The notes: generated from the letters alone by a model not told the origin. A stretch of 64,000 nt of DNA from a virus (IMGVR_UViG_3300035520_001075:1-64000); one strand, 5' to 3'. Numbered from the stretch's first letter, positions 748 to 60,730 are shown. Translations and numbers: made by a program.

Positions 748-929
748 AAAACCTAAAAATGAAGGAAGTTAATAGCTTAACTTGTTAAGCTATTAACTTC
801 CCTCCTCAACTTCACACTTTTTCACGATTCGTTGAGTTCAGCACTTGACTTTTTTTTCGTTCTGTTTTTCGAGCGGCCGCCCACAAGGCAGAGCGAAGAA
901 AAGCGGAAGAAATTAAGTTTTTAGGTTTT
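748..929 (+). other. structured non-coding element (nested inverted repeats; candidate ncRNA or origin/packaging element)
   Basis: Perfect 18-bp hairpin GGAAGTTAATAGCTTAAC-TT-GTTAAGCTATTAACTTCC (764-801) and a G.U-containing stem TTCGTTCTGT/GCAGAGCGAA, enclosed by AAAACCTAAAAA (748-759) / TTTTTAGGTTTT (918-929). Confidence 0.5.
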
Positions 930-1105
930 GGTTTTTCGATTGGGAATTTAAAATTTAAAATTTAAAAAAAAAGAATTTAAAATTTAAAAAAAAGAATTTA
1001 AATTAGATTAAAAATTTTTTAGTAATCTAAAAAAAATAATTAAAACTATTTTACTTTAAAATTGGGTAATAAAAAAAATAAATTAAAAAGGAGCTGAATT
1101 AAATC

Positions 1106-2293
1106 TTGCAAAAATTTTAGTTAGACTATGATATCTATAGTTCAGAAGGCCGCCTCGCCGCAATTCAAGATATTCCCCTTAAGGATTTAAATAAGTCTGA
1201 GTTGGAGACAGTTTCTAATTATATTCTTTATGGGAAGGATAGTAATGGGACTTCTGTTGTTGATAGGGGTGAAGTTTAGATTAAGACAAAGTATTCGTCT
1301 TATAATAAAGAAAGAGTTATTAGTTTAGATGAATTAATGGAATCGCCAACCTTTGATGAGTCGATTTTTAAGAAAGAAAGAAATATTTATAAAAAAGTTA
1401 AACCTACTATTGATAAGGAAAAAGTTAAGGATATTCCTGGAATGAAGGAGCTGTGGAAATCAATTGAGCAATTTTAGGATTTACTTGACCAGAATTTAGG
1501 GAAGAAGCCTTTTAAAGAAGGGACAAAAAAATTAAGTCAACGACAATTATATCAATTGAAACATCAGCTAATTCAATTAAAGACACAGCAATACTATTTA
1601 GCAGATAGTGTTAGTTAGACGCTATTTACAAAAAAGAACCAAGGAAGTTTCTTTAGAGACTCAATTGAAAGTTAGACTAATTATTTAGTACTGCCAAGAG
1701 GTTATATGAACGGAAGCAACGATATTGAATTTAAAGAACCGAGAAAATCAACCTTACCAGCGGCCGCCCTCATTTCGGACGAAGACTTAGAGGTAATTAT
1801 TAAAGAAAAAAAGCCTTACCTTGACTTTAGAAATAAGAATCATTTATATCATTTGATTCAGAATTACTGGGATATTGCTGAAAGTGTTAGAGAAATACCT
1901 GATTCTCCATTATGGGGTATCTTGGAGACATTGGATTTTTATATTGAAAAGGCTAACTTAAGTAAACAACAATTACTTATTATTAGAGATAAGAAGTTAA
2001 GAATTCCTAATAAGGATATTGCAAAACATTTGATGGATGAACTTGGAATTTACCATCAGGAAAACTATGTGAGTACTATTTGGAATAAGAGCTTAAAGTT
2101 GATAGCGGCCGCCGCAGAATTGAATTATGATGAATTTTTGAGTAAGGATTATGATAAAGCTTGGAAAAATTGTATTAGATGCGGCAAGGAATTTTTAAGA
2201 GATGAACGAAACTTCATTAGAAAATCAAAAGCTTCTGATGGACTTTCTAATATTTGTAAGTGCTGTGAGAAAAAAAGTAGAAATAGGAGTTGA
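1106..2293 (+). CDS. putative transcription regulator (sigma region-4-like HTH plus C-terminal CxxC...CxxC Zn finger), ~395 aa with TAG read-through
   Basis: RBS AAGGAG then TTG at 1106; frame open except TAG at 1118, 1277, 1475, 1616 and 1673; joins track ORF 1706-2293; motifs LSKQQLLII...NKDIAKHL and CIRC...CKCC. Confidence 0.7.
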
Positions 2294-2297
2294 GATA

Positions 2298-2552
2298 ATG
2301 GATAGATAGATTAATAAACTTTTGAAATATTTTAAAGAATTTAATTTAGTTGATATTCTCGCTTTTGGAAATATCCTTGGAGTTGAAGAACAAGAAAAGT
2401 TTGAGGATTATATTACTGAAATTCTTGATGCGTTTCAGAAAGAAGACAAATTAAAACGTAGAGCTTTTCTTAAAACTGCAAAAGATGTGGCGGCCGCCAA
2501 CAAAGATATTTTAAAAGGATTGGCCAAGGAGGAGGGGGCTACCAAAAAATAA
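2298..2552 (+). CDS. hypothetical protein (TAG at codon 4)
   Basis: RBS AGGAG 2285-2289, ATG 2298, in-frame TAG 2307, continuous with track ORF 2322-2552. Confidence 0.7.
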
Positions 2553-2625
2553 TGGTAGCCTTAAGGTACTCTATTTTTTAACTTATTTTTCGACTTGCGG
2601 CCGAGTGAAAAAGAGGTGATATAAA

Positions 2626-3567: not shown

Positions 3568-3571
3568 TAAT

Positions 3572-5371: not shown

Positions 5372-6949
5372 ATGATAGAGCAAATTAACTTATCGGATTC
5401 AGAGCAAAAGAAATTAAAAGAATTAAAAGAGGAACGAATTACAGAATTTAAAAAAGCTTTTAAAGATATGATAGCAACCTCACAGGCGGCCTATCAAAAA
5501 ACAGATGCAAAATTCATTAGAGAAAGACATTTAAATTATTCTAAGGAAGAAATTAATAGAATTGTTCAAAATGGCGACCCAATTAGCAGGGCGGCCTTAT
5601 CAGAATTTTTCTTTGCTACTAATGGACTCTATAAACGTATCATTTTACATTATGCTACTTTCTTAACTTATTCTTGGATTTTAGTTCCATATGTTAAAAA
5701 TAGACGATATAAGATTACTGAAAAGAAAATTGCTGACGCTTATTATGACGCTTCGGAATTTTGTACTAATTTTCAAATTGATAGAAAATGTGCGTTATTT
5801 GCAAGAGACATTCTTGTTAAAGGAGCTTATTATGGATTACTTCATGATAATGGCAACAATATTGTAATTCAAGATTTACCTTTTGACTATTGCCGCAGTC
5901 GCTTTAAGAACGAGCAAGATATTGATATTGTTGAATTTAATATGGCTTTCTTTGATACAATTAGAGATGAGCAATTAAGAAAAGAAATTCTTGCTACTTA
6001 TCCAAAAGTTGTACAAAAAGGCTATTATAAATTTAAATATCATGACGGCCCAAAATGGTTATTTCTCCCTGCTGAAATGGGAATTTATTTCTGCTATTTT
6101 GATGAGAGACCATTTTTCTTAGATTTACTGCCGCTACTTGATGACCTTGATGATTACAAAGAAATTGATAAGGAAAGAAATCTCCAAGCTTTAAAAAGAA
6201 TCTTAGTTCAACAAGTGCCGCATGATGGCATGAAACTTGTATTTGAGCCTGACGAAGCAGAAGAAATGCACGAAGGTGCACTTAACATGATGGCTGGAAA
6301 TTCTGATATTGATGTACTTACTACTTATACAAACGTTAGTTTACTTGATATGAGCAGTGATGACGATGAAAAGACAGAAGTTGAAGATGTACAAGATTTA
6401 ATTTACCAATCTGCTGGTGTTTCTAAGGAATTATTCTCTGCAACAACAGATGCTGGTATTCAGTATTCTCTTAATAATGACTTAGCAATGATGATGATAT
6501 TAGGACAACGTTTTGCTCATTTTTTTACTGCACTTCTAAATTATAAATTTGAAAATAAAAAGGTTAAGTTTAAATTGTTAATTTTGCCTATTAGTTATTA
6601 TAATAGTGCTGATTATACTTCAAGAGCAAGAGAGCTTGCATCATTTGGCTATTGCTTCTTAACTCCAGTCTTATCAACTGGTATTGACCAGACTAACTTG
6701 GCCGCACTCAAAACTCTTGAAAATGACTTACTTAATCTTGACGAAATTCTTAAACCTCTTCAATCTTCTTACACGCAGTCTGGAAAATCTCAGGGACAGC
6801 CAATTAGTGATTCAGACACTAAGGCCGCAGAATCCCCAGATTCTAATTCCAGTGATGAAACTGTTGAAGAAGATAATTCAGATTCTACTTCTGAAAAAGA
6901 GGATAAAGATAAAAATAATGATGAGGTGAAGGAAGATGGACAAAGTTGA
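5372..6949 (+). CDS. portal protein
   Basis: 525-aa ORF immediately after TerL with an acidic C-terminal tail; canonical gene order. Confidence 0.8.
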   Translation: MIEQINLSDSEQKKLKELKEERITEFKKAFKDMIATSQAAYQKTDAKFIRERHLNYSKEEINRIVQNGDPISRAALSEFFFATNGLYKRIILHYATFLTYSWILVPYVKNRRYKITEKKIADAYYDASEFCTNFQIDRKCALFARDILVKGAYYGLLHDNGNNIVIQDLPFDYCRSRFKNEQDIDIVEFNMAFFDTIRDEQLRKEILATYPKVVQKGYYKFKYHDGPKWLFLPAEMGIYFCYFDERPFFLDLLPLLDDLDDYKEIDKERNLQALKRILVQQVPHDGMKLVFEPDEAEEMHEGALNMMAGNSDIDVLTTYTNVSLLDMSSDDDEKTEVEDVQDLIYQSAGVSKELFSATTDAGIQYSLNNDLAMMMILGQRFAHFFTALLNYKFENKKVKFKLLILPISYYNSADYTSRARELASFGYCFLTPVLSTGIDQTNLAALKTLENDLLNLDEILKPLQSSYTQSGKSQGQPISDSDTKAAESPDSNSSDETVEEDNSDSTSEKEDKDKNNDEVKEDGQS

Positions 6950-8543
6950 TTTTTCCAAGATTCCTACCACTCTTGATGTGTCTTTATTTGGAGAAACAGA
7001 AAAAATAACTGATACTTTGTCTAAATGTAGGGTACGAATTTTTTATAAGGGAATGAATAGAAATCGTACCTATATATCAGAGGACTTTGCAAATCAGCTT
7101 ATTGCCTCATTACCTTATACTCCAATCAAGGGTATTTTTGATAAAGATACCCTTGACTATGAAGGACATGGGGAAGACAACACGGACGGAAGAATTTATG
7201 GAGTTGTTATGGCAGACCCAAACTTTGCTTGGGAAGATTATGAAGATATAGATGGTATTACAAGAAGCTACGCTTGTGCTGATGTACTATTGTTTACTGG
7301 TCTTTATCCTGAAGCACAACTCATTAAAGGAAAATCCCAGTCTATGGAAATCTTTAGAAAGACGCTTGTTGGTGAGTGGAGGATTTGCGAAACTGATAAT
7401 CAACCATACTATCATTTTATAAGTGGAAGCTTAGTTGGTTTACAAGCTTTGGGAGATGATACTGAACCTTGTTTTGAAGGTTCGGCATTCTTTAGTTTAT
7501 ATAAAGATGTAAAAGAAATGGTAGATTATATAAAAAATTTTAGTATAAAAAAGGAGGAGAAGGTAATAATGGATAAGAGTTTATTTAGACTTTCAGACCA
7601 TGAGAAGGCAAATATTCTGTTTGACTTACTTAATCCTAATTTTACTGCAGAAGGAAATTGGGAATGTTCTCTTGAAATTCTTGACGTTTATGATGAGTAT
7701 TGTGTTTGCTTTGACGTTGCGGCACGCAAGTATGTAAGAGTATATTACACAAAAGACGATGCTACAGATTCAGTAGTAATCGGAGATATCGTTGATGTTA
7801 AGATTGTTGATGTTAGTGAAACAGAATATAATGCTCTTGAAGCAATGAAAGCTGTTGGCGGTTCTTTTGAAGCAACACAGTCCGCTTATGAGGAACTTAA
7901 AGTAGAAAAAGAAGCTTTTAGTACTAAGATTGATGAACTTAAAGCTAAAGTTTCTGCGGCCGCAGCAAAAACAGAAGAGGCAGTTGAGACTGTAGAGGTT
8001 TCGGAAACTGTTGAAAATGTTGAGCCAGTGGTTGAAGCTTCACTTACAGAATCAGGAGAATCAGCAGAAACAGGAGAATCAGCAGAGATAGCAGGAATTT
8101 TATTAACTGTAGAATCTACAGTAGACTATGAAGCTCTGGTTTCTGAAAAGGATACTATAATTTCTGAACTTGAGGAAAAAGTTTCTGATTTTGAATCTGA
8201 AAAAGTTAGACTTGAATCTGAAGTAAATGACTTAACAAATGAGGTAGAAAAGTTATCAGCCTTTAAAAAGGATGTTGAAACAGAGCAGAAGAAAGAAATT
8301 CTTTCAAAGTATGAATCTCATTTAACAGAATCTGCTATTTCTAATTTTACTGACAATATGGACAAATTCACTGTTGAAGACTTCAAAAAAGAAGTTTGCA
8401 CAGCTGCTGTAGAATCTGACCCATCTATTTTCAGTAAGGAAGAGCCGCAGGTTTTCTATAAAGGCGGAAACATTGAAGCTAATAAAGGAGAAAACAGCCT
8501 TATTAGATTATTAAATAGTTATAAAAATGGAGGTAATAAGTAA
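6936..8543 (+). CDS. prohead protease/scaffold fusion
   Basis: N-terminal domain with NRNRTYIS, GH and SQSMEI...ALG...EPCFEGS motifs typical of phage maturation proteases, then a long acidic coiled coil; lies between portal and capsid genes. Confidence 0.75.
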   Translation: MDKVDFSKIPTTLDVSLFGETEKITDTLSKCRVRIFYKGMNRNRTYISEDFANQLIASLPYTPIKGIFDKDTLDYEGHGEDNTDGRIYGVVMADPNFAWEDYEDIDGITRSYACADVLLFTGLYPEAQLIKGKSQSMEIFRKTLVGEWRICETDNQPYYHFISGSLVGLQALGDDTEPCFEGSAFFSLYKDVKEMVDYIKNFSIKKEEKVIMDKSLFRLSDHEKANILFDLLNPNFTAEGNWECSLEILDVYDEYCVCFDVAARKYVRVYYTKDDATDSVVIGDIVDVKIVDVSETEYNALEAMKAVGGSFEATQSAYEELKVEKEAFSTKIDELKAKVSAAAAKTEEAVETVEVSETVENVEPVVEASLTESGESAETGESAEIAGILLTVESTVDYEALVSEKDTIISELEEKVSDFESEKVRLESEVNDLTNEVEKLSAFKKDVETEQKKEILSKYESHLTESAISNFTDNMDKFTVEDFKKEVCTAAVESDPSIFSKEEPQVFYKGGNIEANKGENSLIRLLNSYKNGGNK

Positions 8544-12430: not shown

Positions 12431-12434
12431 TATT

Positions 12435-13687: not shown

Positions 13688-16600
13688 ATGGCAACACAGA
13701 ACCTTTTTGATAAATATGGTATTAAGGAAGTCGCTGACGTTACTTTTTATCGTATAGAGAAGAAAGAAGAAACATATGAATCTCAGAGAACCATTACTAT
13801 ATCTTCTATTTTAAAAGGTGCTATGGAACTTCAGACAGTTTATCCTTTAGAAAAAGGAAAAGGTTCAGAAGATGGTTTTGAGGCGTATGTGTTTACAGAT
13901 GCAGAACTCGTAACTGGAACTAACTATGACTGTGATGATGTTCTTGACATTAAAGAAGTTATAACAGGTACTTTTAAGTCTACAGAAAGAATTACAGATA
14001 AGTATATTACTAGCGAAAAGACTCTTAGCGAAATTACAGCAGATGAAGCTTTTGAGTTAGATGAACCAACATATTATGATGCAAAATCTGGTGCAGAAAT
14101 TTCTGACTTAGTTCTTTCAACATATTATGAAGAAATTAAATCAGATAATGCAGTAATTAAGATTAAATATTCTGATGAAGAGATTATTAGCACAACAACA
14201 GACTCAACATCTTCATCTGACTCGGATTTAGATACAGCAGATTTAAGTGATGAGGACGCTACAACAACAAATGAATATTCTTACACTATTACTATTTATG
14301 TTAGTGGTCTCACAGCAGATAGTAAGACTGATAAGACAACAGGTGTTTATGAAGATTCTAATGATTCTAAAGTTCCTGATGCAACAAGAGAAGTTGGTAC
14401 TCATGAATATACTTACGAAGAGCAGGTATTAATGCTTTTTGCTAAGAAACAGAATATTATTAGTAAGACTGGTGTTCGTTATCAGTTTGCTAATGCAGAT
14501 TCTATTTTTGGTGAAATTTCCTTTAATGACAGCTTTGCGGCCGCTCCAAATTCAACAGAAAAAATTGTTGTAATTGGCTTAGATGGCAAATTTACAGAAA
14601 GCACTTATGATGTTTCGGAAGTTATTGAAACAATTAAGAGCCTTACAGAAACATTTGAAGCAAAGGCTTATGACGTAGTTTATAACGACTATGCAGAGCT
14701 TGTTGTTGAAGATGAAATGGGATATTTCAATCCATATTTCCTTGGTAAGGATTATAATAAGAGCACTAAGACAATCAGCCCATTTGTTGCTACTGCAAAG
14801 ATTGGTACAGAAACTGTTAAAGAAAAGTATATGGCTTGGGCAGTTAAAAATGCTGGTGTCGATAGAGCAATTGCTACTGCAGAAATGTGGGGTAATGATG
14901 AACATTATAGCATAAATGATGCTATAGATGCTCTTAAACAGAAGAAAAAGATTATAGATGTTGGCGAAGCAGACGGTGCAGCAGGCATTGAATCAATCTT
15001 CGGCGGCTATAAAGTTGTAGATAGCAATAATGAAAATGGTGCTATTCCTGCAATAGGCAAAGAAGATACAGATTATGCTGCAAAATATATCTATTCTGCA
15101 GAAGGGGTAGACGCTCCATTTGACGTGACAAGCCCTTCTGACAAATATCCACTTGACAACGTTATTGATGCAATTTCTGAAATTGCTTATGACGAAAATG
15201 CAATTGGAAAGGATATTAGAGTTGACGCTGTAAATAGTAAGAATATTACTACAGAAATCCAGTCTAATAGAGCAATCTATGTTAAAGTTGATGGTTCTGT
15301 TGATACAGCCGCTGGTGCTTATATCTATCTTCTTCATAATAAGAATTATAAGAAACTCACTTCTGATTCAGAAGGCGTATTCTCATTTGAAGATAAGAAA
15401 GGCAACACACTTTATTATCAGGACAAAATCTTCAAGGGCATTGAATATCTTGCACTCGTTATAATTGGCAACAAGGGTCTTATCTTTGTTGTAAATAGAC
15501 ATGGCAAGAGTGATACAAAGAAGATTGCTTGGATGATTAATGAAAATGGCTATGTTTCAGACACAAGAACAGCAACACTTGTAAAGAAAGGTCTTATCCA
15601 TACAACAGATATAACTGCAAATGACGAAACATTTGAAGCTACTTGTACAGTTAAGAGCCTCGGTGTTCATAGGGTCACTAAGAAAACAAACCACTATATT
15701 CCAGTTCTCTTCCTTGACACATTAAAGATTTCTACAATTGAACAGACTGCTGAAGAAGTTTATGCTACAGGCGGCCGCGGCAATGCAAATCTTATTGGTT
15801 GGGATTATGGTAAGGAAATCACAGTAAGTCTTGAAGATGCTCTCTTTACTCCTGCTTCAATGAGTGCTATGTTTGGTAGCTACGAAGGTAATGACTTCCG
15901 TAAGGGCGTAAAGGAAACAAAGTCTATTGATAGAATGGAAAAAGTGACTGCCAAGAGAAGCTTCATTGTTCCTGCTGGTAATAGTAATGGAACTCCAACA
16001 GAAGCAGATAAAACAGCACAGGCTGTATTCTATGACCCTAATACAATGGAACCATATGCAGATGGTACTCCGATTGCAGAAGGAGAAATTTTCTACAAGT
16101 TTACTCGTTCTATTGCTTATGACGGACAGTCAATTGGTCATACAATTGAAATCTCAGCAGATAAGTTCCCAGGTACTTATAAGATAGTAGGTGATACTTT
16201 CGTTCGTTCTAAGGAAACTGGTGAAGATGAGAGATTCCAGTTTGTTATCCCTCAGTTTAAGGTTGGTTCAGAAAATACAATTACACTTGAAGCAGATGGA
16301 GACCCAGCGGTAAACAGTCTCAGAGCAAATGCCGCTGTAAAAATTGCTTAATTGCTGGAAACCCCTTAGAGCCAATTAAACTACAACGTAATTTATAATA
16401 AGCGTGAATGTTAAAAAATTAATTGGATTGGGCAATCAGCAGCCAGAATTTAAAATAAATTGGGTTCTGGTTCAACGACTATCGGTGATGAATGTAGCCG
16501 AGTAGATTTAAAAAAAATAAATCGAAATAGCAATCATAGAAATATGAAGATATAGTCTCAACTTTAATGAAAGTTAAAGAGTGATTTAATAAATCACGTA

Positions 16601-21635: not shown

Positions 21636-23045
21636 ATGAATCTATTCCAAAAATATGGTATTAAGGAAGTTGCAGATGTAGTATTCTATACTATAACTAC
21701 TGTTGGAGATGAAGAAATCTACACTCCAGTTTTACTCCTTGATACTTTAAAGGTTTCTACTATAGAAAAGTCAGCAGAGAATGTAAGTGCTGAAGGTGGT
21801 AAAGGTAATAAAAAGTTAATTACTTGGAATTTCGGAAAAGAAATCACTTTAAATCTTGAAGACGCTTTATTCTCTCCTGCATCAATGAGCATGATTTGGG
21901 GCGGCGAACTCCAAGCTAAACTTGCTCCTTATACATCAGCAATTGTTAAAATTAATATAGCAAACAAATATGGACAGCTTCATTATTCTACAAAGGCCTA
22001 TCCTTCTCCTGCTTTAACAGATGAGGAATGGGAAATTGTGTTTAAAGCGGCGACTGAATCAAAGGTTTGGATTGGAGATAATAGCGTTTTAAATACTTCC
22101 AAATATTCTGGTTTAATTTACTGGAAAGAAAATTATGATTCAGATGAGGAATCTATTGAAGAGAATAGAACTAATTTGAGAAAAGGCTATTATAAGAGAT
22201 TATGGCAATCAAGTTCTGATTATACATATAGTGCGTCTTCAACTGATTATGCTATGCCTACTAAAGTTGTTGAGAAGATTATGACTTATATTACTAACAT
22301 AAAGAAAATAGGTTCAATTGAAACAGAAATGTATGATGTTGAAGTTATTGACAGAATGGAAAAATGTATTGTTAGAAATAAGGACGGCTTAACAATCAGC
22401 ACTCAGGAACAAAAGAAAAATTTATTTAAATATTATCAAGATGACCAGACTTCATCTTATACTATTTACTATGATGCAAAGACAATGTTGCCATTATTCA
22501 ACTTAACAGATGATGGCTACATTCAAGGCTGGGAGGCAAACTATCAGAATGATGACCACTATGACCAAGATTTTGATTTAAAAACTGACTCAGACCGTTT
22601 TAAACTTAAACTTGGTACTGTTTACTACAAATGGACAAGAACGGTAAAATATAAGCAGGGCGATGATGATGGAATTCTTGGAAGAACTCTTGTAATTGAT
22701 GCAGAAACTTTTCCAGGTGTTTACAAAATAGTTGGCGAAACTTACATTAGAAATCAGAAGACTGGCAAAGACCAGCGTTATCAGTTCATAATCCATAGAG
22801 CACAAGTTAATTCTGACACAAGCATTACTTTGGAAGCAGAAGGAGACCCAACAACATTCACAATGTCAATTGATGTCTTAACTCCTCCAAATGATATTAT
22901 GATGGAACTTAAACAGTTTGATGTAGATGAAGATACAATTCATGGCGGAACAAGAATAGTTCCTCAGAAGGCTATCTATACTCATACTGCAACACAAACT
23001 GAACTTTTAGATACAGTCGGATTCGACAATCCAGAGATTTATTAA
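21636..23045 (+). CDS. tail-tube-like structural protein paralog 4
   Basis: MNLFQKYGIKEVAD...LDTLK...WNFGKEI...FPGVYKIVGET...LEAEGDP. Confidence 0.8.
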   Translation: MNLFQKYGIKEVADVVFYTITTVGDEEIYTPVLLLDTLKVSTIEKSAENVSAEGGKGNKKLITWNFGKEITLNLEDALFSPASMSMIWGGELQAKLAPYTSAIVKINIANKYGQLHYSTKAYPSPALTDEEWEIVFKAATESKVWIGDNSVLNTSKYSGLIYWKENYDSDEESIEENRTNLRKGYYKRLWQSSSDYTYSASSTDYAMPTKVVEKIMTYITNIKKIGSIETEMYDVEVIDRMEKCIVRNKDGLTISTQEQKKNLFKYYQDDQTSSYTIYYDAKTMLPLFNLTDDGYIQGWEANYQNDDHYDQDFDLKTDSDRFKLKLGTVYYKWTRTVKYKQGDDDGILGRTLVIDAETFPGVYKIVGETYIRNQKTGKDQRYQFIIHRAQVNSDTSITLEAEGDPTTFTMSIDVLTPPNDIMMELKQFDVDEDTIHGGTRIVPQKAIYTHTATQTELLDTVGFDNPEIY

Positions 23046-23052: not shown

Positions 23053-23089
23053 AAAAATAGGGCGGCCGCTTAGGTCGTCTTATTTTTTT
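23053..23089 (+). terminator. intrinsic terminator
   Basis: AAAAATAGGGCGGCC/GGTCGTCTTATTTTT stem with G.U pairs plus T-run. Confidence 0.7.
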
Positions 23090-23147: not shown

Positions 23148-24044
23148 ATGGAAAGTTCTGGCGGAATGAAAGAAATGTATGATATTACCTTACGTCTTAA
23201 TAGTCCTATTGAGATTGGGAAAAAGAAATATGATATTAATGAAGCTGTACTGTCTTTTGCTTCTGCTTAGATTGCTCAGTTTCAAGAATCAAAATCATCT
23301 GTTCAGGCAAGAGGAGGTTATCATAATCCTGCTTTAGTTAATTGGGAAATTGATAAAGAAGCGAGTTTTGCTTTAACTAATGGCGTTTTATCTCCTACAA
23401 GTTGGGCATTATTAAGTAATTCTAAATTAAATGAGCCTAATATTAAATCTGTTCAATTTTATGAAACATTACATACAATTGAAGATGAGAAATGTTGCTT
23501 TGTTGATTTAAAATATCGACCTAATAACTGCAATATTGAACTTGGTGCTGCACCAAAAATCGAAGGATTTAAGAAAGGGCCGCACGAGGAAATAAAATTA
23601 AAGCCTTTGCCACCGTCAAAGACAAAATGGGTTTTTTGTTATGATGCTGACACAGGATAGAAAATTAGAGATTTTGAAATTTATCAGAATAGAATTTATT
23701 TCTATGAGGGCTATCGAAATGTAATGGTAGATTATACATTTACATATGAAGATAAAATTAAGGTGATAGAAGTCGGTAATCGACTTTTTAATGGATTTCT
23801 CAGGTTAAATGGGAAAATGAGTGTAAAGGATGAAAATAGTGGAGAAGTGTCCACTGCGATATTGGAAATGCCGAAAATTAGATTATCTTCAAATTTATCG
23901 TTAAGACTTGGAAAAAGTTATGATGCTTCTACTGTCAGCGACTTTTACTTTACTGGTTATGTCGATGAGAGTAGGAGAAGAGAGGAGCAGAGCGTTGCTT
24001 ATATAACTTTTTTAGATAAGGAATTAACAGGGGATTATATTTAA
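23148..24044 (+). CDS. diverged tail-tube-like paralog 5, ~298 aa with 2 internal TAG
   Basis: RBS AAGGAGGTG; GMKEMYD and ARGGYHNPALVNWEIDKE align by eye with GIKEVAD and AKGGLGNPELITWDYGKE; joins track ORF 23724-24044. Confidence 0.65.
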
Positions 24045-24046
24045 TG

Positions 24047-24073
24047 GGGAACGGCAAAGACCGTTCTTTTTTT
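24047..24073 (+). terminator. intrinsic terminator
   Basis: GGGAACGG/CCGTTCTT hairpin plus T-run. Confidence 0.7.
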
Positions 24074-24092
24074 GTTTTATGGAGGTGAGAAA

Positions 24093-26588
24093 ATGCCAGT
24101 TTCTAATAATTTAGTTCAAGAAGCGAAAGAAGATAAATTAATAGCTTATTTTATAGGCCTTGCGAAGAAAAGTTTTGAGCAGGAAAAAAAATTCTATTCA
24201 ATAGTGGGGATTGAAAAGAGTGAGAATATGCCTCAATCTTTAGTAGATGAGTATGAAAAATTAACAAATAAAGATTCTTTTAAAAAATATCAGGATAATC
24301 TTGCAGATACTGTGTATGGAAAAGACACTCATTTTATAAAATATTTTTATGATGAAAAATTTATAAGTGCTCTAAGTGGAAAAGCAGCATCGGTCGATTC
24401 TGTTTTAAATAATCTTGAAAAAGATTTGGCAGCATATGCAATAGCTATGTCAGGAGAATAGACTGATATAACAGTAGTTGGAGAAAAAACCTCTTTAGAA
24501 AAAAGTATAACTATTTATTATTTATTTGGGACAGATAAAGATGAAAAAAGCATTGAAATTTCAGGAAAAACTTTAGAAGATAAATTTGAATAGAAAAAAA
24601 AGGCTATTAAGCCATAGGAATTAAAGACTTTTATTGCTGAATAGATAATGGAAAAAGAAGGAAATGTAAAATCAAGAGTTAACCTTAATCCTAGCAACAA
24701 AGAAATTATTCCAAATTTACTAAACGCTATTAATAATTTTATATTAGGATTAAAAGAAACTTCGGGAGAAGTCACGCAGAAAGGAAGAGGATATTATATT
24801 ACAAGAAATATTGAATTTGGCAATAAAATTGGAATTTCTTTAGGTGAAGCCTTATTTGGAAGCTATGGAGAACCCTTACCAGAAACTATAGATGAAGCTT
24901 TTAAAATTAAAGGAGGTCGAAACTTACTTAAAAACAAAGACATGCCAACATATTCTCAAATTTTAAATGATCCTAAAAAAAGTGTCGCTAATGATATAGT
25001 AAGGGCTTTAAATGATACTCTATTGCGTGAAAATGTTATTTAGAGTTTGAGTGAGACTGAAATTAATACAAAAATGGCACTCCTTATTCGATATTTAATA
25101 GAAGGGATGTTTACGAATGGAAAAGCAAATATTTCTATTGAGGGTGCTGTAAGTAGTAATAATAAAAATTACAGAAAAAAAAATGAGATTAAAATGTTTG
25201 AACTTAATTTTGGCTCTCCTAATTTAGAAGAAATTCTTAAGGAAGGAGAATATACAATTAAACTTCGCGGTGGAGAAGAAATGTTTAAAACATTGTTTTC
25301 TGGAAGTTTTAAAACCGAACTTGCACGGCAATTAAAAACTGAACAAGTTAGCGGAGAGAAAAATCAATTAATTTGTGGTGTAAAAATTATTGCAGAAGAT
25401 AAAAATTTATTTTTTAATAAAATTGATAATTCTATTAATATAGACAACTATAAAAAAGAGGTAATAACTAATAAAAAAAAGAAAGGAATAGATGATTCTG
25501 CTAAATTAGAAAAAGATGCTGAAGAAGTTTCAGCAGCTTTTTCTATGGTTATTAGTTCCGTTATTGGTGAGATAGGTAGTGCAGAAGATTCTGAATTATT
25601 TCAGAAGTGGTGGGGGACAGAAGGCAAAAATGATATGTCCTCAGCACTTAAACAATTAATTATTAATAATCCAACTTAGATTTATGAAATATTAAGTAAA
25701 AAAGATAAGAAACAAGTGGCAGGTATGATAGGAGAAACAGTTTTTGGAGCTATAGTGATGAGAAAAATGAAAAATAGTGGCGACCCAATTGTTTAGATGC
25801 TTGGACAGACAAGCCATGGAAACGGGGAAGCTGCTGTAGATTTAAATATAGTAGATGTAAAAGCATTAGAAAATAGTGGTCAGCTGTTCACATCAGACAA
25901 ATTGGATTCAGAAGTTTTAAAAAAGAAAAGATTAACTTCTGTTGGTTTTCAAATTAAAAACTATACTTCTGCAGGAGAGAATAGTGAAATTTTATATAGA
26001 ACAACAAACAAATTATTGAGTGATACCTCAACTATGAAAAGATATTTATAGGATACTTTTTTAGGATATATTCAAGAATAGCTTACTTAGGATAATGAAG
26101 TATTTTTTTAGGGTGGAACGAAGGATGAATAGGACAAGGAATTAAAAAAAATTGGAAATATTTTAGCTTATCATATTCCATATTTCATGAGATACGATGA
26201 GGCTCAAATGGAGCAAAATACTTTTGGAATAGAACAAAATAATTTCTATATAGTTAATTTTAAGTTTGTTCCCTCTTCAATGCTATTTTTTTTGATGGCT
26301 AAAAGTATCGCAATAGAAAAAGATAAAGTTCCTTTAGGAGAACAATATTTTTATTTTTCAGCTTATGAAAACAAGTCCGAAAGAAACGCAAGGCATGAAT
26401 AGGGAATAGACAAAAACAATAATAGAAATTTTTTACCTTCTTACTATAATTTTAGAGATTCCTTTAAAACCCCCCAGAGTGACAATTTAGTTAGTTGGCA
26501 TCATGATAGACTTGCTATTAATTTTACTGGAGTAAAAGTTAATTTTGGCAAGGAATTTGATAAAATTGTGAATAAAACAACGAGGTGA
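24093..26588 (+). CDS. hypothetical protein, ~831 aa with 13 internal TAG
   Basis: RBS GGAGGTG, ATG 24093; five track ORFs (24072, 24648, 25047, 25797, 26187) share one frame, separated only by TAG; ends TGA 26586-26588. Confidence 0.8.
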
Positions 26589-41320: not shown

Positions 41321-44104
41321 ATGATGAGACAGATAAAGGATTTTGTTGGCTTTAGATTTGGTAATGTCCATTCAAGTGAACTTAATTTATTAGTAGTATC
41401 TTCCAGTGATAGATATGAAAAGAATTTACTTCCAGACCCAACAGATTATACAACTGAAATCCCAGGTTCAGATGGAACTTATTACTTTGGACAAACCTAC
41501 AAAGACAGAACTTTTACTGTTAATGTTGCTTTTGATAGAGTAAGTGAACCAATCTTTAGAAAAATTTCTTAGTTATTTGCTAATGATAAACTTCAAGATT
41601 TAGTCTTCGATGAAATGCCTTTTAAAACTTACAAAGCAAAAATTAAATCTAATCCAGACTTTAAATTCATTTGTTTTACAGATAGAGATACTGGAGAACG
41701 AGTTTATAAAGGAGAAGGAACTTTAGTATTTATTTGCTATTTTCCTTATGCTTTTGGTTTTAATAAGTACGTTGTAAGAGCGGCAGACTTCTATAAGTGT
41801 GCTCAGCCGAAAGACATTATTATTAACAAACTTGAAGATAATCCATATAGAAAAAAGAAAAAGCCAAAGTTTTGGCCTGCTATTATAAAAGACCATTATA
41901 ATGTTGAATATAATATGAGAACTCCTTGGAAGGGCGGCTACCCTACAATAGAACAAGTTCAATGGGGAGAACTTTATTTTAAAGGCCCAGAAGATTCTGA
42001 GAAAAAAATGATTATTGATGTGCGTAATTATTGGAAGAATATCCCAGAATGGCAGGGAACAGCAAAGTTATTAACAACTCCTACTCTTGATTATGACCAA
42101 GAATTGATTTTTGCACCGCAGTTTTCAAAGTGCAAGTTTATTAATATGGACACTGGTTATTATACTGAAAATGATATGATGGGTAGTAGAATTTTAGTTT
42201 ATAATCCAGGTGATTTACCAATTGAATTTGAATTAAAAATGGAAGAGAATAAAAGAACTTTCTGGTCTTCAAGAATGGGCAATGGTTTTAGAATTAGTCG
42301 CTTTAATGTTGAAAGATTATCTATTGAACAAGCAGTAGATTGGACTGGATTAACAACATTAGAACAAGTAGATGATAAACCTTATAAATATGGTAATAGA
42401 TATTTTAAGTTAGACGATAGCGAACCAGATGATACAGAGCTTTTAAAAAATATTGATGAGTATACTAATAAGAATTGGTTGGAAGAAGACATTCTTATGG
42501 AAGAAGGAGATACTCATAATTATGGCTATTATGATAGAGAAGGTAATGAAGTTATTACAGACGTGATAGTAGATGGAAAAGAGGGTAATACTGCTTACAC
42601 AACTCCTAATGGGGCGGCCGCTAAAGAAATTGCATATAATTTACATTTAAAAGAATATCAAGATTCATTATATAATTTTATTGACGAAAAAACCGAATAT
42701 CGTTTATTAAAAGCAGCCCACCCTCATCACACTTATATTGCTGAGCCAATTCCTCGCCAAAAGCTTGGACACTATATCAAATTATTCTATTGGCAGTCAG
42801 AACAGCAGTTTAAAGATAACTCAAAAAAATTAGCAAACCTTTATCCACAGTTAAAGTTTGAAGATGGAATTAAGATTGCAAATAGATATGATGAGTTAAG
42901 AAGTCTTTGTATAAATGAAGATGAAGAATATGAGTTATATTGGGAAACTTTGAAAATGGCCATTCTTGATAAATACAAGGATTGTAATGTTTTTTCTGAG
43001 AAAACTTCTACATATTATGATTCAACTTATACTTATGAAGATTTTGTAGAGAGCTTCTTATATCACCCAATGGAATTTATTACAGTCGATACAGATAAGG
43101 AACTTGATTATGGTCAAGATACTTTAAATATCTATAATTATCCTCAATGGATTACAGAAGATTACTTAGAAATCGACCCATCAGCACTTGCTTATGATGA
43201 GGATTATAGAACTTATAATAAAACCGAAAATATGCCAGATGCACTTTTCCTTGACACAGAAGAAAGAATTCTTTTTGAGAATCAAAATCCAGATGACTTT
43301 TATAAATATAAACCTACTAAAATACTTTACAATGATTCTATTAAAAAAGGAAAATGGTTTAAGTTGCCGCCAGGTTGGAGCTTAATAGCAATTGAACCTA
43401 TTTCTGATGAGGAATATTGGGGTGGAAAACGTTGGTTAGATGCAAGACCTTTTGATTGGGGCTATGGCGGTGATGAGAATCGGAATCCACGAGAAGTTCA
43501 ACAGTTATTTGATGGCGTATATGATTATTGTGTTAATAAATTTCTCAAAAACTCAGAAGATGAGGGAACTTATTATAAAGAAGAAGCTTTTAGTCGAGAT
43601 AACGTAAATACATGGTTGGCAAAAGGCTATAATAATGGACTTTTTGATTTAAACGGTGGAAAGAATTCTCCAGCAGAAAAATCGTATATTAATAATGATA
43701 ATCAGCCAGTGTTAGACATAAATACACTTGATGATGAAGATAGAATGAAGATTAGGAATTGGTTCTTCTATTATAAGGAACAAGCGAAGTCAAAAAATGA
43801 TACGTTTGCTTATCAGCTCTATTGTAAAAGAGAAACACAAGCAGAATACTCTTTCTTAAAATTATTATATCGAGTTTGGAATAAAATTTCCCCTTACTAT
43901 TCTTGGACTGCAGGAAAAGGCGTTTTTGAAGATGGAGAAGATTTGGACGATAGCGGCCGCCCTAAGAGATGTATCAATGCTCATATCTCAGATTGGTGGT
44001 ATTATGCTTGCAACTATATGTGGGCAAATTTCCCTCCTTTGTATTGGGGACTTGCAGATTTATTAAACGGATTACAAATTAAATATGTTCCACTATTTTA
44101 TTAA
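41321..44104 (+). CDS. distal tail (Dit)-like baseplate protein with large insertions, ~927 aa
   Basis: Follows the tape measure gene; GFRFGNVHSSELNL...EIPGSDG..YFG N-terminus; single TAG at 41570 joins track ORFs 41321 and 41615. Confidence 0.72.
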
Positions 44105-53164: not shown

Positions 53165-53195
53165 ATAAAATGGGTACATATTGTGCCCATTTTTT
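53165..53195 (+). terminator. intrinsic terminator
   Basis: AAAATGGGTACA/TGTGCCCATTTT hairpin plus T-run. Confidence 0.7.
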
Positions 53196-53210
53196 ATAGA
53201 GGTGAATTTT

Positions 53211-54317
53211 ATGGCTTATTTTTATTATCCATTGGAGAATTATGTTCAAGGAAAATCTGGTGCTTATTATAATGGAGCAAAGACCTATGATGGGCACGGC
53301 ATTGGAAAATTAGATTTTCTCGCAAGTCGAGGAGACCCAGTATATAGCATGACAGATGGAACCGTGACGCACGCAGGAAAAGCGAATTCTGGCTATTAGG
53401 CAATTGTTATTGAAGCAACTGGCTATGCTGTATCTCCAATATATATTCATTACTGGCACACAGAGAATTATCAATTTGAAGTAGGATAGACAGTTAAACA
53501 GGGTGATTTAATAGCTTATGTTGGAGACGATGATGTCTCTGGACAACATTTGCACGTTGACTTTAGAAATGCAAGTATGCAGAAAGAGGAAAAAAACTTT
53601 ATAGGACCACAATTAAGTAGTTATACAGCTGAACAAAGCGAGGCTATTGAATTTTGGAAAGGGCAAGCAACATCTGCAAATGATTATCTTGGTTATTGCT
53701 GGGAAGTCTTTGCAACACCAGCACAAAAAATGTCTGGTGGCAATGGAGTTTTAAATATTAATAAAGATATTGATACTTATACTTATCTCCAACGAGCAGC
53801 AGATATATTGGGTAATGAATTTACAGATGCTAATATTATCGCTGGAATTTTAGGAAATTTTTGGCAAGAAAGCAAAGGAAATCCTTTTGCTTTGAGCCAG
53901 TCAGGCTATTATGGATTATATCAAACTAATGATAGTAATTTTATTCAAATAATGAGCAATAATGGCTTATTAAAATATTTTAATGGAACAGATACTCCTA
54001 AAGATGAACATAAGAAAAAATGCGTTGACTTAACAATGAATTATTTAATGAGCAATTGGAATGGCAGTTCTAACTATCCGAGTCAAGCAAAAAATGGTAA
54101 ATTGGTTTCTACAGAAAATATGACAGAGGCGGCCGCACAAGCAGAGCTTTTTGCAGTAATGATAGAGAGATGTGTCGGTGGCTCAGATAGCGTTCTATGT
54201 GCAAAGGTATAGGATTATATGAAGAAGTATTACAATGGAAAAATATATAGCTATCAAAATTTGAAGGAAAGAAGAGATGCTGCGGATTGCTTCATAAATG
54301 GAACAGCTCCAGCATAA
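53211..54317 (+). CDS. cell-wall hydrolase: M23 peptidase plus phage-tail-lysozyme-like domain, ~368 aa with 3 internal TAG
   Basis: GDPVYSMTDGTV, YWH, VG(TAG)TVKQGDLI and HLH (M23 signature); IAGILGNFWQES and GYYGLYQ (lysozyme-like). Confidence 0.82.
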
Positions 54318-54797: not shown

Positions 54798-54860
54798 ATT
54801 TACTAAGTTTTCGCTTAATTTCCACTTTAAAAATGTAAGATGAAACGAGGTGATGAGAAA

Positions 54861-55292
54861 ATGGCTTATGCATATAATTCTAATAGCCAATTGCTGCAAA
54901 ATCAGAACAATCCTCAGCAAAATTATAATAATGCTCAAATGTTCCAACAGCAGCAAAATATTCAACCATTATTTCCTCAGCCGCAAGGTAATGTTTACAA
55001 TATTAATTCAACTCTTGAAGTTGCAAATGTTCCTGTTGGTGCTGGCATTTCAGTAGCTTTATGTTTAAATGAGGGAGTAATGTATATCAAATCAATGCAA
55101 AACGGCAATCCTCTATTTTGGGTTTATAAGATAGAGCCTTATAATGATTCTCCAAAAAATGAGGCGGCCGCACAAGAAGAAGCAACATCTCAATATCCTA
55201 ATTACGATGAACGCTTCTTGAAAATTGAAAAACAAATTGATGAAATTCAAACCAATCTTAAAAATCAAAAAGGAGGGGAATTTCAATTATGA
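54861..55292 (+). CDS. Gln/Asn-rich hypothetical protein
   Basis: RBS GAGGTG, ATG 54861. Confidence 0.75.
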   Translation: MAYAYNSNSQLLQNQNNPQQNYNNAQMFQQQQNIQPLFPQPQGNVYNINSTLEVANVPVGAGISVALCLNEGVMYIKSMQNGNPLFWVYKIEPYNDSPKNEAAAQEEATSQYPNYDERFLKIEKQIDEIQTNLKNQKGGEFQL

Positions 55293-57231: not shown

Positions 57232-57235
57232 AAGA

Positions 57236-57269
57236 AAAGAGAGTAGAAAATTAATTCTACTCTCTTTTT
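57236..57269. terminator. bidirectional terminator between convergent modules
   Basis: AAAAGAGAGTAGAA/TTCTACTCTCTTTT inverted repeat with A- and T-runs at the strand switch. Confidence 0.8.
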
Positions 57270-57994: not shown

Positions 57995-57996
57995 GA

Positions 57997-58788
57997 TTAT
58001 TCTCCGCTACTTCCAAAGCCGCCTTCTCCTCTATCAGTATCATCAAGTTCTTCAACTTCTTCCCAAGTAATCATTGGAGATTTAGCGAGAATTAACTGGG
58101 CAATTCTGTCTCCTTTATTAATTATCTGAGAAAGATTTCCAGTATTTTCCATTATAATTCCAACCTCTCCACGGTATGCACTATCAATTGTTCCCGTAGA
58201 ATTGGCAATTCTAAGAGAAGTTTTAAGTGAAAGTCCTGAACGAGGACGTACCTGAATTTCATAGCCTACTGGAATGGCAATCTTAATTCCTGTTTTAATA
58301 ACCTGCGTTGTATGAGGTTTAAGAGTTGTTGTTTCCAAAGCAAATACGTCAGCACCAGCATCACTGTCATGAGCGTACTTAGGAATTATAGCATCTTCAC
58401 TAAGCTTCTGAATTTTTATTTTAACTTTTTCTCTTGGATTTTTATAAAGGTCATAGATTGAAAGAACTGTATTTTCAATTATAAGGCTGAGAAATTCTTT
58501 TTTATTATCAGAAATACTATCATCTTTTTTAATTTCTTCCAAGAAGTCCTTAATTCCTTTTGACTCTTCTTCAAAATTCTTAATTGGATTTGTTTCAAGA
58601 GTTTTAAGTATTTCGTCCTGAAAAGCTTTTGAGCTAAACACATCAAGTATCTTTTCTTTAAAAGAAGGATACATTGCATCAAACTGTTCATCAGGTAGTT
58701 CCAGAATCTGAGTAAACTGTTCCGCTGTATCTGCATTACTATTCTTTTCTAAAATTTCACTAATCTGTTCTTTAATTTCTTTATTCAT
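57997..58788 (-). CDS. dut: trimeric-type dUTPase with ~120-aa N-terminal extension
   Basis: Motifs AGADV, RPRSGL, GTIDSAYRGE, GDRIAQL and RGEGGFGSSG. Confidence 0.92.
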   Translation of the reverse strand: MNKEIKEQISEILEKNSNADTAEQFTQILELPDEQFDAMYPSFKEKILDVFSSKAFQDEILKTLETNPIKNFEEESKGIKDFLEEIKKDDSISDNKKEFLSLIIENTVLSIYDLYKNPREKVKIKIQKLSEDAIIPKYAHDSDAGADVFALETTTLKPHTTQVIKTGIKIAIPVGYEIQVRPRSGLSLKTSLRIANSTGTIDSAYRGEVGIIMENTGNLSQIINKGDRIAQLILAKSPMITWEEVEELDDTDRGEGGFGSSGE

Positions 58789-59560
58789 TATTATCTTCAC
58801 TCCTATTTTCTTCAATTATTATTTCTTCATTTTCTTCTTCAAACAAATCATCAATTGTATTAATAACTTTATCAATGACTCCAAAATTTAAAGCTTCTGT
58901 GCAATTAAGACACCAGTCGTCTTTAAAATGCTTATCATATTCTTCTGCACTAATCTTTGTATGATTTATCGTCACGCTTTTTAAACTATCAAGTTGTGCT
59001 CTATAAAAATCAACTCTTTGGAGAAATTTATGAGCATCACCCATATCTCCTGAAGAACCCTCATGGAAGAGGAAAGTACTATAAGGAAAAGCAAATCTCT
59101 TAGTTCCGCAAATTCCAATAAAGAAGCCGCCACTATAACTTGTTCCAGTTGTTATTGTATAAATTGGCGTTGTCGACGTTTCCATTGCTCCTATTATACT
59201 GAATACTGCTTCAAGTTCTCCGCCTGGCGAGTTAATAAACATTTTAATTGGCACTCTTGCTTCTTTTGGAATATTGTTAATATTATCAATTCTATTCCAA
59301 AAATAAATTAATTCTGTTATCTGATTTGCCATTAGAGAAGTAATTTCTTCTGATACATAAAGATGTCTTTCATAGAAATCAAATGTTCCTATCGTAGCTT
59401 CTACATCTACTTGTTTATCAGGATTTGTTAGTTCATCAAGAATATCTTCGCCGCAACTCATACAAGCTTTATCATAGAAATTCTCAACTGTTTGTAGAAA
59501 TTCTTCTTTTGTTTTCATCGTTCCATCATCATTATAAATTGTAATTAGTTCTTCATTCAT
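58781..59560 (-). CDS. ClpP-like protease subunit
   Basis: PIKMFINSPGG, SYSGG (Ser), FLFHEG (His), DDW and EALNFGVIDKV motifs. Confidence 0.85.
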   Translation of the reverse strand: MNEELITIYNDDGTMKTKEEFLQTVENFYDKACMSCGEDILDELTNPDKQVDVEATIGTFDFYERHLYVSEEITSLMANQITELIYFWNRIDNINNIPKEARVPIKMFINSPGGELEAVFSIIGAMETSTTPIYTITTGTSYSGGFFIGICGTKRFAFPYSTFLFHEGSSGDMGDAHKFLQRVDFYRAQLDSLKSVTINHTKISAEEYDKHFKDDWCLNCTEALNFGVIDKVINTIDDLFEEENEEIIIEENRSEDNNE

Positions 59561-59738
59561 TCATTAAATCCTCCAAATGTGATTTTTCTTTTTCTAAGAA
59601 TACTATTTCGTCAATGAGTTCGCTTAATCTTGGATTTAAAACAAAAATATCAAGCTTAATTTTTTCAAGTTCATTTTTTCTTTCTTTAAGGTCAAAGCAA
59701 GTTTTATCATAAACTGATTTAATATCTTCACTACCCAT
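59553..59738 (-). CDS. small hypothetical protein
   Basis: RBS AGGAGG, start MGSEDIK. Confidence 0.65.
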   Translation of the reverse strand: MGSEDIKSVYDKTCFDLKERKNELEKIKLDIFVLNPRLSELIDEIVFLEKEKSHLEDLMNE

Positions 59739-59773
59739 TTTATTTCCCTCCTTTTTTCTCATTTACTATAATA

Positions 59774-59802
59774 ATTATAACACAATTTGTATTAAAAGTC
59801 AA
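59774..59802 (-). promoter_or_regulatory. sigmaA-type promoter for the ClpP-like/dut/RuvC cluster
   Basis: Minus-strand TTGACT-N17-TATAAT with extended -10 TG. Confidence 0.75.
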
Positions 59803-60730
59803 TACTTTTACTTTCAAAAGTTAATGGATTTTGCTTTAATAATAGTCTAATTTCACTATCGCTTTTATTCATTAGAGAAATAGCCTTGCTATCTTCTTTA
59901 TAGAAATTATAGTAAGATAACTGCGAATCTGAGTAATACCATTTAAAAATTTTATTAGATAGTTCATCTTGGACTTTGTAATCTTTAGATAATTTAAGTT
60001 GTTGGCGGCCGCCTATTTTTTTGAGATAAATTATTGTTTTTAAATCTTTTATAGGATGGCCGCCTTTGTAGAGAATTTTAATCGGTTTATCAATATTATT
60101 GATAATGAATGAACTATCATAATCAAAATCAGCTATTAATTCTCTATTCTTAAATGATTTAGAATAATAAGCAAAATCCTCGCATAGTTGTTGGTCTGAG
60201 AAAATTAAAGGATACAAGAAAATGAATTTGTGATTTTCATGATAATCTCTTAAAAAGTCTAATGCATTTGATTGTTCTATAAAATTATAGTCTGCAATAT
60301 AAATATCTTTTCTCTCTGGTTTAAAACCGCTAAAATCATTTGTTCCAACTCTTATATAAGAATTTTTCTGCATTTTATCTAAAAGTTTTTTATCTGCTAA
60401 TCTTTCCGTAAATGCTACATAAGGGAGATATGAAGGAGGGATTGCCGCAATTTCAGGAATTAAATTTGGATTTTTATGATAGAAGTTATACCCTAAGCAA
60501 TCGACTTTTTTATCACCTAAATCAATTTTAATTTTCTTATTAATTAAAGTATTTGGTTTCTCTTTGAAGACAAATACTTTATTAAAACGTTCAATACTAT
60601 CTTGCGGCCGAAGCATAGCCACGACATGATTATTCTAATAACAATAATTATAAATCTTCATTAATTCTAAATTGGGGTAGTTCTTTCCGCCACCCCATAG
60701 GTCTAAATCTAAAAAACCGTATGAACTCAT
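59792..60730 (-). CDS. hypothetical protein, ~312 aa with one internal TAG
   Basis: RBS AGGAGG, start MSSYGFLDLD...NYPNLELMKIYNYCY(TAG)NNHVVAML, continuing into track ORF 59792-60622. Confidence 0.72.

Follow-up and report, generated by a model that had tools for sequence, protein, structure and literature searches.

The five-base palindrome GCSGC is iterated throughout the genomes of a TAG-recoding clade of gut and rumen phages

We found that the five-base word GCSGC (GCGGC or GCCGC) is iterated throughout a 64,000-nucleotide stretch of viral DNA (IMGVR_UViG_3300035520_001075:1-64000, hereafter the window), with 150 words in both orientations between positions 1 and 64000 where 12.3 are expected from base composition. 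The window, with a G+C content of 28-35%, is the first 64 kb of the phage genome under study (G000), a complete IMG/VR record of 157,483 bp with terminal repeats. Genome-wide, GCSGC occurs 370 times (27-35 expected), while GCWGC, its A/T-centred counterpart, is found at the expected level (113 vs. 116). The word is symmetric, of restriction-modification-type specificity, and is held near saturation by a lineage-specific pressure at the DNA level. The original prediction had singled out a longer palindrome, the NotI octamer GCGGCCGC, as an iterated element resembling HIP1, one of the highly iterated palindromes (HIPs) of cyanobacteria. The idea of a palindromic word iterated at the DNA level stood, as it survived codon shuffling, but the octamer was not borne out as the unit: the iterated element is the 5-mer, and a NotI site arises where two GCSGC words share two bases.

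The octamer counts themselves were accurate. A pattern search found exactly 14 copies of GCGGCCGC in the window, all at the coordinates first reported; dinucleotide-preserving shuffles held 0.02 copies on average, and none of 100 reached 14. The whole genome has 26 copies (0.055 expected), making this its top over-represented 8-mer, and 103 GCGGCC/GGCCGC partial matches, so the "dozens" announced for these were no exaggeration. The reading frames were also correctly described: 16 of the 26 sites read GCG GCC GCN (Ala-Ala-Ala) and six read xGC GGC CGC (Gly/Ser/Arg-Gly-Arg), with none in the third frame and four outside open reading frames (ORFs) of at least 100 amino acids. Markov models of 5-mer and 6-mer frequencies nonetheless account for these numbers. 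For orders 0 to 6, the expected genome-wide count was 0.06, 0.06, 0.15, 2.5, 14.1, 27.3 and 26.4, a rise caused by the GCSGC excess. With 5-mer frequencies only (order 4), the surplus is not significant in the window (14 vs. 9.7, P = 0.12) and is slight in the genome (26 vs. 14.1, P = 0.003), where it goes with a peculiar tolerance of GGCC, found almost exclusively inside GCGGCC (77 of 113 copies; the other 36 compare with about 141 expected). Relatives with the same 5-mer excess hold as many NotI sites as their 5-mers predict (8 vs. 9.1 in G001, 2 vs. 2.4 in G003), and none where GGCC is avoided, as in loci L006-L010.

Several properties confine the signal to five bases. In the position matrix of GCSGC sites there is no information beyond them, and the flanks of the NotI sites are unrelated to one another, which rules out a longer repeat or mobile element. 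Between 65 and 69% of the 4-mers CCGC and GCCG lie within GCSGC, and once this word is masked the remaining G+C-only words are at most 1.2-fold enriched, save CCGCC at 2.1-fold. Pairs of GCSGC 3 bp apart number 54, namely the 26 NotI sites, 24 GCGGCGGC/GCCGCCGC and only four GCCGCGGC, the last being rare because CGCG is avoided. There is no strand bias, either on the plus strand (195 GCGGC vs. 175 GCCGC) or on coding strands (148 vs. 145). As in the HIP class, we are dealing with a short, G+C-rich palindromic word of extreme over-representation (the top 5-mer in G000, G001 and G003), present at 2350 copies per Mb in five of six frames and in coding and non-coding DNA alike.

The pressure does not come from the encoded proteins. 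The original prediction had named codon shuffling as the null model that could dissolve the enrichment, and it did not: shuffling synonymous codons within genes left 74±7 GCSGC in coding sequences where 293 are observed (z = 32), and 0.96±0.93 NotI sites in place of 22. Against the same expectation, with TAG read as sense, GCSGC was in excess in both Ala-Ala frames, GCC GCN (84 vs. 32) and GCG GCN (66 vs. 21), in the xGC GGC frame, frame 1 of GCGGC (99 vs. 22.8), in the xGC CGC frame, frame 1 of GCCGC (29 vs. 2.7), and in the xxG CCG C frame, frame 2 of GCCGC (41 vs. 4.0). Only the xxG CGG C frame is practically empty (1 vs. 0.5), and this in G000 only, because its genes almost never use the CGG codon; the same frame holds 17 copies in G001 and 13 in G003. 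GCWGC is reduced in coding sequences (85 vs. 172), with the deficit limited to the Ala-Ala frame and frames 1 and 2 unaffected, so it reflects a shift towards S rather than avoidance of GCWGC.

Codon choice follows the neighbouring bases accordingly. Alanine is encoded by GCS in 70% of cases when the next codon is GCN and in 15% elsewhere (odds ratio 13.5), glycine by GGC in 61% after a codon ending in GC and in 21% elsewhere (odds ratio 6.0), and proline by CCG in 78% between G and C and in 6% elsewhere (odds ratio 60). Synonymous opportunities to form GCSGC are thus taken in 60-78% of cases, and odds ratios of 6-60 imply a strong DNA-level force on these genomes. Outside all ORFs of at least 40 amino acids (16.4 kb) there are 39 GCSGC where 1.8 are expected, or 2.37 per kb, practically the density inside ORFs (2.41 per kb), and introns and GIY-YIG homing-endonuclease genes have 2-3 per kb. 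Non-coding density, codon shuffling, per-frame counts and context-dependent codon choice together reject a codon or amino-acid artefact. Structured RNA was also discarded as the cause, with just 4 of the 39 non-coding sites lying in group I introns called by Rfam.

The GCSGC excess is an inherited trait of a TAG-recoding (code 15) clade of gut and rumen siphoviruses related to phAss-1, the phage with the capsid closest to that of G000 and itself carrying 2.3 GCSGC per kb. In G000, TAG is a sense codon: GyrA, NrdD, ThyX and a DnaB-like helicase were recovered only when it was read through. Around portal homologues in IMG/VR, 80 loci had observed-to-expected ratios of 2-15. In a closer set of 47 loci (at least 10 kb, portal at least 53% identical) GCSGC was the first-ranking word in 33 and among the top three in all 47, at a median density of 1.9 per kb (range 1.0-3.2). 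This density hardly varied with base composition across 30-40% G+C (r = 0.17), a range over which composition alone predicts a roughly 4-fold change. A more distant portal group (27-33% identity) had a weaker signal, with a median of 1.1 per kb. Among whole relatives, G001 has 315 words (25 expected) and G003 has 299 (37 expected). Restriction-avoidance patterns vary among the lineages of the clade.

Individual GCSGC sites turn over freely, and it is their density that is kept. In G001, which has 75% nucleotide identity to G000, 31% of the sites are unchanged, compared with 30% of all 5-mers, and for G003 the figures are 12% and 20%; sites are thus not kept beyond background between relatives as is reported for HIP1, although GCSGC is better kept than other G+C-rich 5-mers (3-28% conserved). 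At the strain level (three contigs, 98.7-98.9% identical), four distinct GCSGC sites differ from G000. Pairs of sites forming hairpins or terminators were ruled out (nine pairs 4-20 bp apart, about the level of chance). Outside the window, an intergenic repeat of about 60 nt occurs in some 11 same-strand copies at G000:147500-157000, with the consensus AAATATTACGAATTTGTGAACT-N3-4-GGCGGCGACTTAATACCTACT-N2-TTTAATAGGAATT, and contributes about 10 of the 39 GCSGC sites in non-coding DNA. The copies resemble a family of promoters (TTGTGA, 17 nt, TAATAC) in which the spacer has a fixed GCGGC and a small inverted repeat lies behind.

The word is not borrowed from the host. As candidate hosts we took five metagenome-assembled genomes (MAGs) that bin related phage contigs, belonging to Clostridia, Ca. 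Fimenecus, Eubacterium, Gastranaerophilales and Ruminococcus. Observed-to-expected ratios of GCSGC were 0.3, 0.3, 1.2, 2.4 and 2.0 on their bacterial contigs and 3.7-5.7 on their phage contigs, and host composition was rejected as the source. For Fimenecus and Ruminococcus, the pairing of phage and MAG is backed by matching profiles of palindrome avoidance (r = 0.88 and 0.91), and it is to these two MAGs that the avoidance profile of G000 itself is nearest (r = 0.68 and 0.54). One protein of G000 (G000:131060-131818) has a type I dockerin domain, a hint of a cellulosome- or amylosome-building host (Ruminococcus-like Oscillospirales), in agreement with the avoidance profiles. On the bacterial contigs L112-L119 of MAGs G010 and G007, GCSGC is about 3-fold depleted (3 vs. 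10 and 7 vs. 23) and GCWGC is not, the reverse of what their binned phage contigs display.

Nor is the excess general among A+T-rich phages of Firmicutes, a possibility rejected by three unrelated ones, Enterococcus phage EF1 (1.8-fold), Clostridioides phage LIBA2945 (0.7-fold) and Bacillus phage Kirov (zero). In 40 kb of the latter (NC_071041, 10001-50000) there is not a single GCNGC, with about 52 expected (11 GCSGC and 41 GCWGC).

Considering that density is independent of G+C content and that a phage methyltransferase is not needed for it, we favour, tentatively, weak selection on the total density of interchangeable GCSGC recognition sites for a putative reader of the restriction-modification type. 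In such a scheme the pressure would act on double-stranded DNA itself and be specific to the lineage of G000, with the complete word favoured at roughly 2-4 natural-log units per site. The reader (a methyltransferase, nickase or binding protein) would be two-fold symmetric, would tell G/C from A/T at the centre, and would provide phage DNA with a mark seldom present in that of the host. The cytosine-5 (C5) methyltransferase coded by the phage may use GCSGC sites, yet it cannot be the clade-wide cause. The original prediction had also offered a binding, recombination or packaging signal, of which a binding or recognition role is possible, while packaging is unlikely for 370 evenly scattered sites. 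That the clade writes a host-rare word as a self-mark, with a putative reader encoded by the lineage telling phage from host DNA, is a bolder idea and an unlikely one; if true, the role of the reader might be to keep a nuclease off phage DNA or to guide repair, replication or modification, and the clade would possess a viral equivalent of Chi or HIP words, complete with its own reader.

A number of observations weigh against selection on density. The words are spread along the whole of G000 at about 2.35 per kb, with a spacing that is no more regular than random (coefficient of variation 1.07 vs. 1.00±0.06), unlike what selection for even coverage would produce; regular spacing was thus discarded. 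A 4.9-kb stretch (23578-28437) is nearly devoid of the word, with a single GCSGC (0.21 per kb); it holds an 838-amino-acid ORF (24072-26588, with 13 in-frame TAG and no family match) and the start of the tape-measure gene. Site columns have no protection from single-nucleotide polymorphisms (SNPs) among the strain contigs (1.5-2.1% vs. 1.1-1.3% elsewhere), so single sites are at most weakly constrained, which fits only very weak per-site selection or neutral drive. Random spacing, the 4.9-kb gap and the unprotected columns suit drive at least as well, and constant density could also be explained by a saturating mutational drive limited by the accessible contexts. Furthermore, a scan of about 100 of the larger ORFs found no candidate reader protein common to the clade, and the host assignments come from metagenomic binning and k-mer similarity alone.

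The main rival of density selection is a methylation-linked drive of the HIP type, in which a GCSGC cytosine methyltransferase of phage or host, together with biased mismatch repair (Vsr-like, or by the methyl-directed ratchet that has been proposed for cyanobacterial HIPs), would convert near-misses into the word with no benefit to the phage; we consider this possible but doubtful. GCsGC is the documented alternative HIP of Cyanothece PCC 7822, a cyanobacterium with predicted GCsGC methyltransferases (PMC4390886), and G000 does carry one C5 methyltransferase (117320-118267, outside the window), of a family that is frequent on metagenomic contigs of 120-180 kb (964 homologues, none informatively named). 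The survival of GGCC inside GCGGCC is likewise high in G001, the other methyltransferase-bearing genome (53 of 77), and lower in G003, which has none (32 of 98), as would fit protective methylation of GCSGC. The uniform density across sequence classes, the random spacing and the free turnover would also suit a neutral drive.

Other evidence speaks against it. The G000 enzyme aligns to M.HhaI over its full length, target-recognition loops included (E = 5e-37), and GCGC, the target of M.HhaI, is avoided in G000 despite this M.HhaI-like methyltransferase; the enzymes of G000 and G001 are just 34% identical. There is no PF00145 (C5 methyltransferase) match in G003, G004 or G005, three of the five large relatives, each at least 96% complete, and these are enriched all the same, with observed-to-expected ratios of 8, 5.8 and 10.3, which rules out the phage C5 methyltransferase as the clade-wide cause. 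A word-methylating methyltransferase in every genome with the excess, as expected of a HIP, is hence not seen among the phage genomes. Neither of the signs of a Dcm/Vsr-type bias was found: G000 has no match to the Vsr endonuclease (PF03852), and C-to-T forms are not in deficit among the one-off variants of GCSGC, which stand at 0.9-1.9-fold (GTCGC/GCGAC 1.75, GCCGT/ACGGC 1.9, GCWGC 0.97). Methyltransferases of the N4/N6 family PF01555 were not found in G000 either. A host enzyme would also affect the candidate hosts, which are not enriched, and at mutational equilibrium density should track G+C content, which it does not. A cause in methylation or repair, as first proposed, is therefore unsupported.

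A possible restriction-modification pair adjoins dnaE on the minus strand (G000:65925-67494). One member is a 195-amino-acid ORF with a weak match to a PADLOC model of Type II restriction enzymes (E = 1e-4), and the other an overlapping ORF of 338 amino acids that contains the motifs FxGxG and NPPY and has matches to "DNA methyltransferase" families of PHROG. We take the NPPY motif to be typical of adenine methyltransferases, in which case the enzyme could not act on GCSGC, a word without A. For this reason, and given that both ORFs are absent from G001 and G003, we dropped it as a cause.

Less probable is a Chi-like or priming signal, in which single-stranded GCSGC would be read, free of orientation and at high density, by a helicase-nuclease (and so protect) or by the DnaG-type primase of the phage. 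Position-free sites that turn over at about 2 per kb resemble short Chi words, such as the 5-nt AGCGG of Bacillus subtilis, and a quasi-palindrome without strand bias is usable in both orientations. The genome also has its own primase, DnaB-like helicase, DnaE, RecJ and UvrD-like helicase. However, the Chi and primase sites known so far lack symmetry and are read on one strand, and Chi words are enriched in the host, whereas the candidate hosts stand at 0.3-2.4-fold; GCSGC is neither asymmetric nor orientation-biased nor host-enriched. In G000 we found neither an AddAB-like nor a RecBCD-like gene, and the trinucleotides used by characterised DnaG-type primases do not have to be enriched. We regard this explanation as improbable.

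Displacement by restriction avoidance, with GCWGC and G+C-rich palindromes shunned and Ala-Ala dipeptides pushed into a GCSGC that has no role, is largely refuted for the clade of G000 and very improbable. It does occur elsewhere. Enterocloster phage PMBT24 (OQ326496, 1-80000), a cultured distant relative by similarity of replication genes, has a 7-fold excess of GCSGC. Its GCWGC count is 0 with 62 expected after codon shuffling, and its GCSGC count 93 with 26 expected; the Ala-Ala frame accounts for 70 of these 93, and the density in non-coding DNA is just 0.32 per kb. Its excess is pure restriction-avoidance displacement, unlike the excess of the G000 clade in all frames and contexts, and would be explained by restriction specific for GCWGC in Enterocloster bolteae. 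In G000 the S excess of the Ala-Ala frame (150 vs. 53) equals the W deficit (65 vs. 162), and several palindromes are indeed strongly avoided: GATC (12 vs. 472 expected), CTAG (22 vs. 469), CCGG (3 vs. 75), GCGC (9 vs. 104) and CGCG (13 vs. 55), from which it follows that G000 is not generally immune to restriction. But GCWGC is undepleted in frames 1 and 2 of G000, G001 and G003 (9 vs. 10.4, 8 vs. 6.8, 7 vs. 7.2 and 5 vs. 1.8), GCSGC is 4-10-fold enriched in those same frames and genomes, total GCNGC is increased (414 vs. 271), non-coding DNA has the full density, and other allowed G+C-only words are not enriched.

The most improbable reading of all is that GCGGCCGC itself works as a NotI-type restriction-modification target or as a binding or packaging site: its rank among 8-mers and genome-wide surplus over 5-mer frequencies are offset by the order-5 expectation, the insignificant count in the window, the numbers in relatives, and the loss of two window sites in strains 98.8% identical.

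The 14 NotI sites of the window show how such words sit in the sequence. Eight of them are in the Ala-Ala-Ala frame of plus-strand ORFs: 1760-1767 and 2105-2112 (both in ORF 1106-2293), 7956-7963 (ORF 6936-8543), 14537-14544 (virion protein ORF 13688-16351), 30463-30470 (ORF 30292-31272), 42614-42621 (ORF 41321-44104), 54129-54136 (ORF 53181-54317) and 55164-55171 (ORF 54840-55292). The site at 15771-15778, in the same virion protein ORF, reads Gly-Gly-Arg (GGC GGC CGC), the one at 43953-43960, in ORF 41321-44104, reads Ser-Gly-Arg (AGC GGC CGC), and that at 60005-60012 is in the Gly-Gly-Arg frame of a minus-strand ORF (59792-60730). Two others, at 873-880 (GCGGC and GCCGC overlapping by 2 bp) and 2490-2497, are outside ORFs of at least 100 amino acids, and the one at 23062-23069 is in the intergenic gap 3' of ORF 21636-23045, with a T run behind it. 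The original prediction had placed a copy inside an intron endonuclease gene. For the site at 30463 this was not confirmed: its ORF has no Pfam or other family match, although it belongs to the intron-rich tape-measure region and has HNH endonuclease ORFs as neighbours. Strain variants illustrate the turnover. A third GCCGC overlaps the end of the site at 2105 (GCGGCCGCCGC) and reads GCTGC in L003 and L005; the second GCSGC of the site at 7956 is lost in L002 and L003 (GCCGA), and the site at 14537 is GCGGCTGC in L002.

G000 is a large siphovirus-type phage, with terminase, portal, capsid and tape-measure genes; a megablast search with 20 kb of it found no match among GenBank phages. phAss-1 is listed at NCBI in the "Caudoviricetes code 15 clade", and its authors proposed Clostridia as hosts (PMC10607447). 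Group I introns are numerous (six Rfam hits within the window), several GIY-YIG and HNH endonucleases are encoded, and the replication and nucleotide genes include DnaE, RecJ, gyrase, NrdDG, ligase, a DnaG-like primase, a UvrD-like helicase and dUTPase. A gene at G000:136914-138383 strongly matches the BREX Lon-like protein BrxL (BrxL_ATPase, E = 1e-93, plus BrxL_N) and could be a decoy or counter-defence gene. A dUTPase with a dCTP-deaminase-like region (window 57997-58812, minus strand), a deoxypyrimidine 5'-nucleotidase (NT5C; G000:93954-94508, minus strand) and ThyX (G000:114998-115828, plus strand) resemble the gene sets with which some phages alter their pyrimidine pools, and we identified no enzyme of base modification. 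Genes for tRNA are very few, and ARAGORN called one with an irregular two-base anticodon (G000:123400-123473) adjoining a tRNA-Gln(TTG).

Our literature search found no description of such a GCSGC excess in a phage clade. What is new is a HIP-like iterated GCSGC in phages; GCsGC was already known as an iterated palindrome in one cyanobacterium. An excess of a short palindrome is the opposite of the usual phage pattern, of which the purging of GATC, CTAG, CCGG, GCGC and CGCG from G000 itself is an example, and here it is about 10-fold, clade-wide and independent of the host. Cyanobacterial iterated palindromes have resisted explanation for some 30 years, and finding GCsGC in viral genomes, which are small and of which many relatives have been sequenced, may make testing easier, with PMBT24 as a starting point towards a culturable member of the clade. 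In practice, GCSGC density is a simple metagenomic marker for clade members, and the excess distorts host prediction from codon usage or k-mers for them.

Among known systems, the closest likeness is to the cyanobacterial HIPs, represented by HIP1 (GCGATCGC) and by the alternative HIP GCsGC of Cyanothece PCC 7822 (Elhai 2015, PMC4390886). The phage word, identical to the latter, is like them a short G+C-rich palindrome in many-fold excess, with some 1000-2000 copies per Mb or more, in several frames and intergenic DNA, and has the form of a methyltransferase recognition site; unlike them, it belongs to a virus clade, is absent as an iterated word from the candidate hosts, and has no cognate methyltransferase common to the clade. 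Moreover, HIP1 sites are reported to be conserved and quasi-periodic (PMC5861425, PMC13756078), whereas the GCSGC sites of this clade are not positionally conserved. Targets of restriction-modification systems are normally avoided or neutral in phages, as the missing GCNGC of Bacillus phage Kirov illustrates, and an enrichment of about 10-fold sets GCSGC apart from them. In its discrimination of G/C from A/T at the centre, and in the presence of a C5 methyltransferase in G000, it is nevertheless like such targets, GCSGC being a specificity of the TauI type and GCNGC of the Fnu4HI type. A C5 methyltransferase of phage or prophage origin, M.BatI, acts on GCNGC (PMC8936443). With Chi sites and DNA uptake sequences the clade shares many interchangeable copies, uniform coverage and turnover of sites; these are asymmetric, strand-biased and cellular, and GCSGC is symmetric, unbiased and phage-specific. 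Lastly, the Dcm/Vsr system of Escherichia coli (CCWGG, biased T:G repair) also over-represents a word of the methyltransferase-site type, but it differs from G000, which has no Vsr match and no deficit of T-variants, and the excess it causes in E. coli is much more modest than that of GCSGC in these phages.

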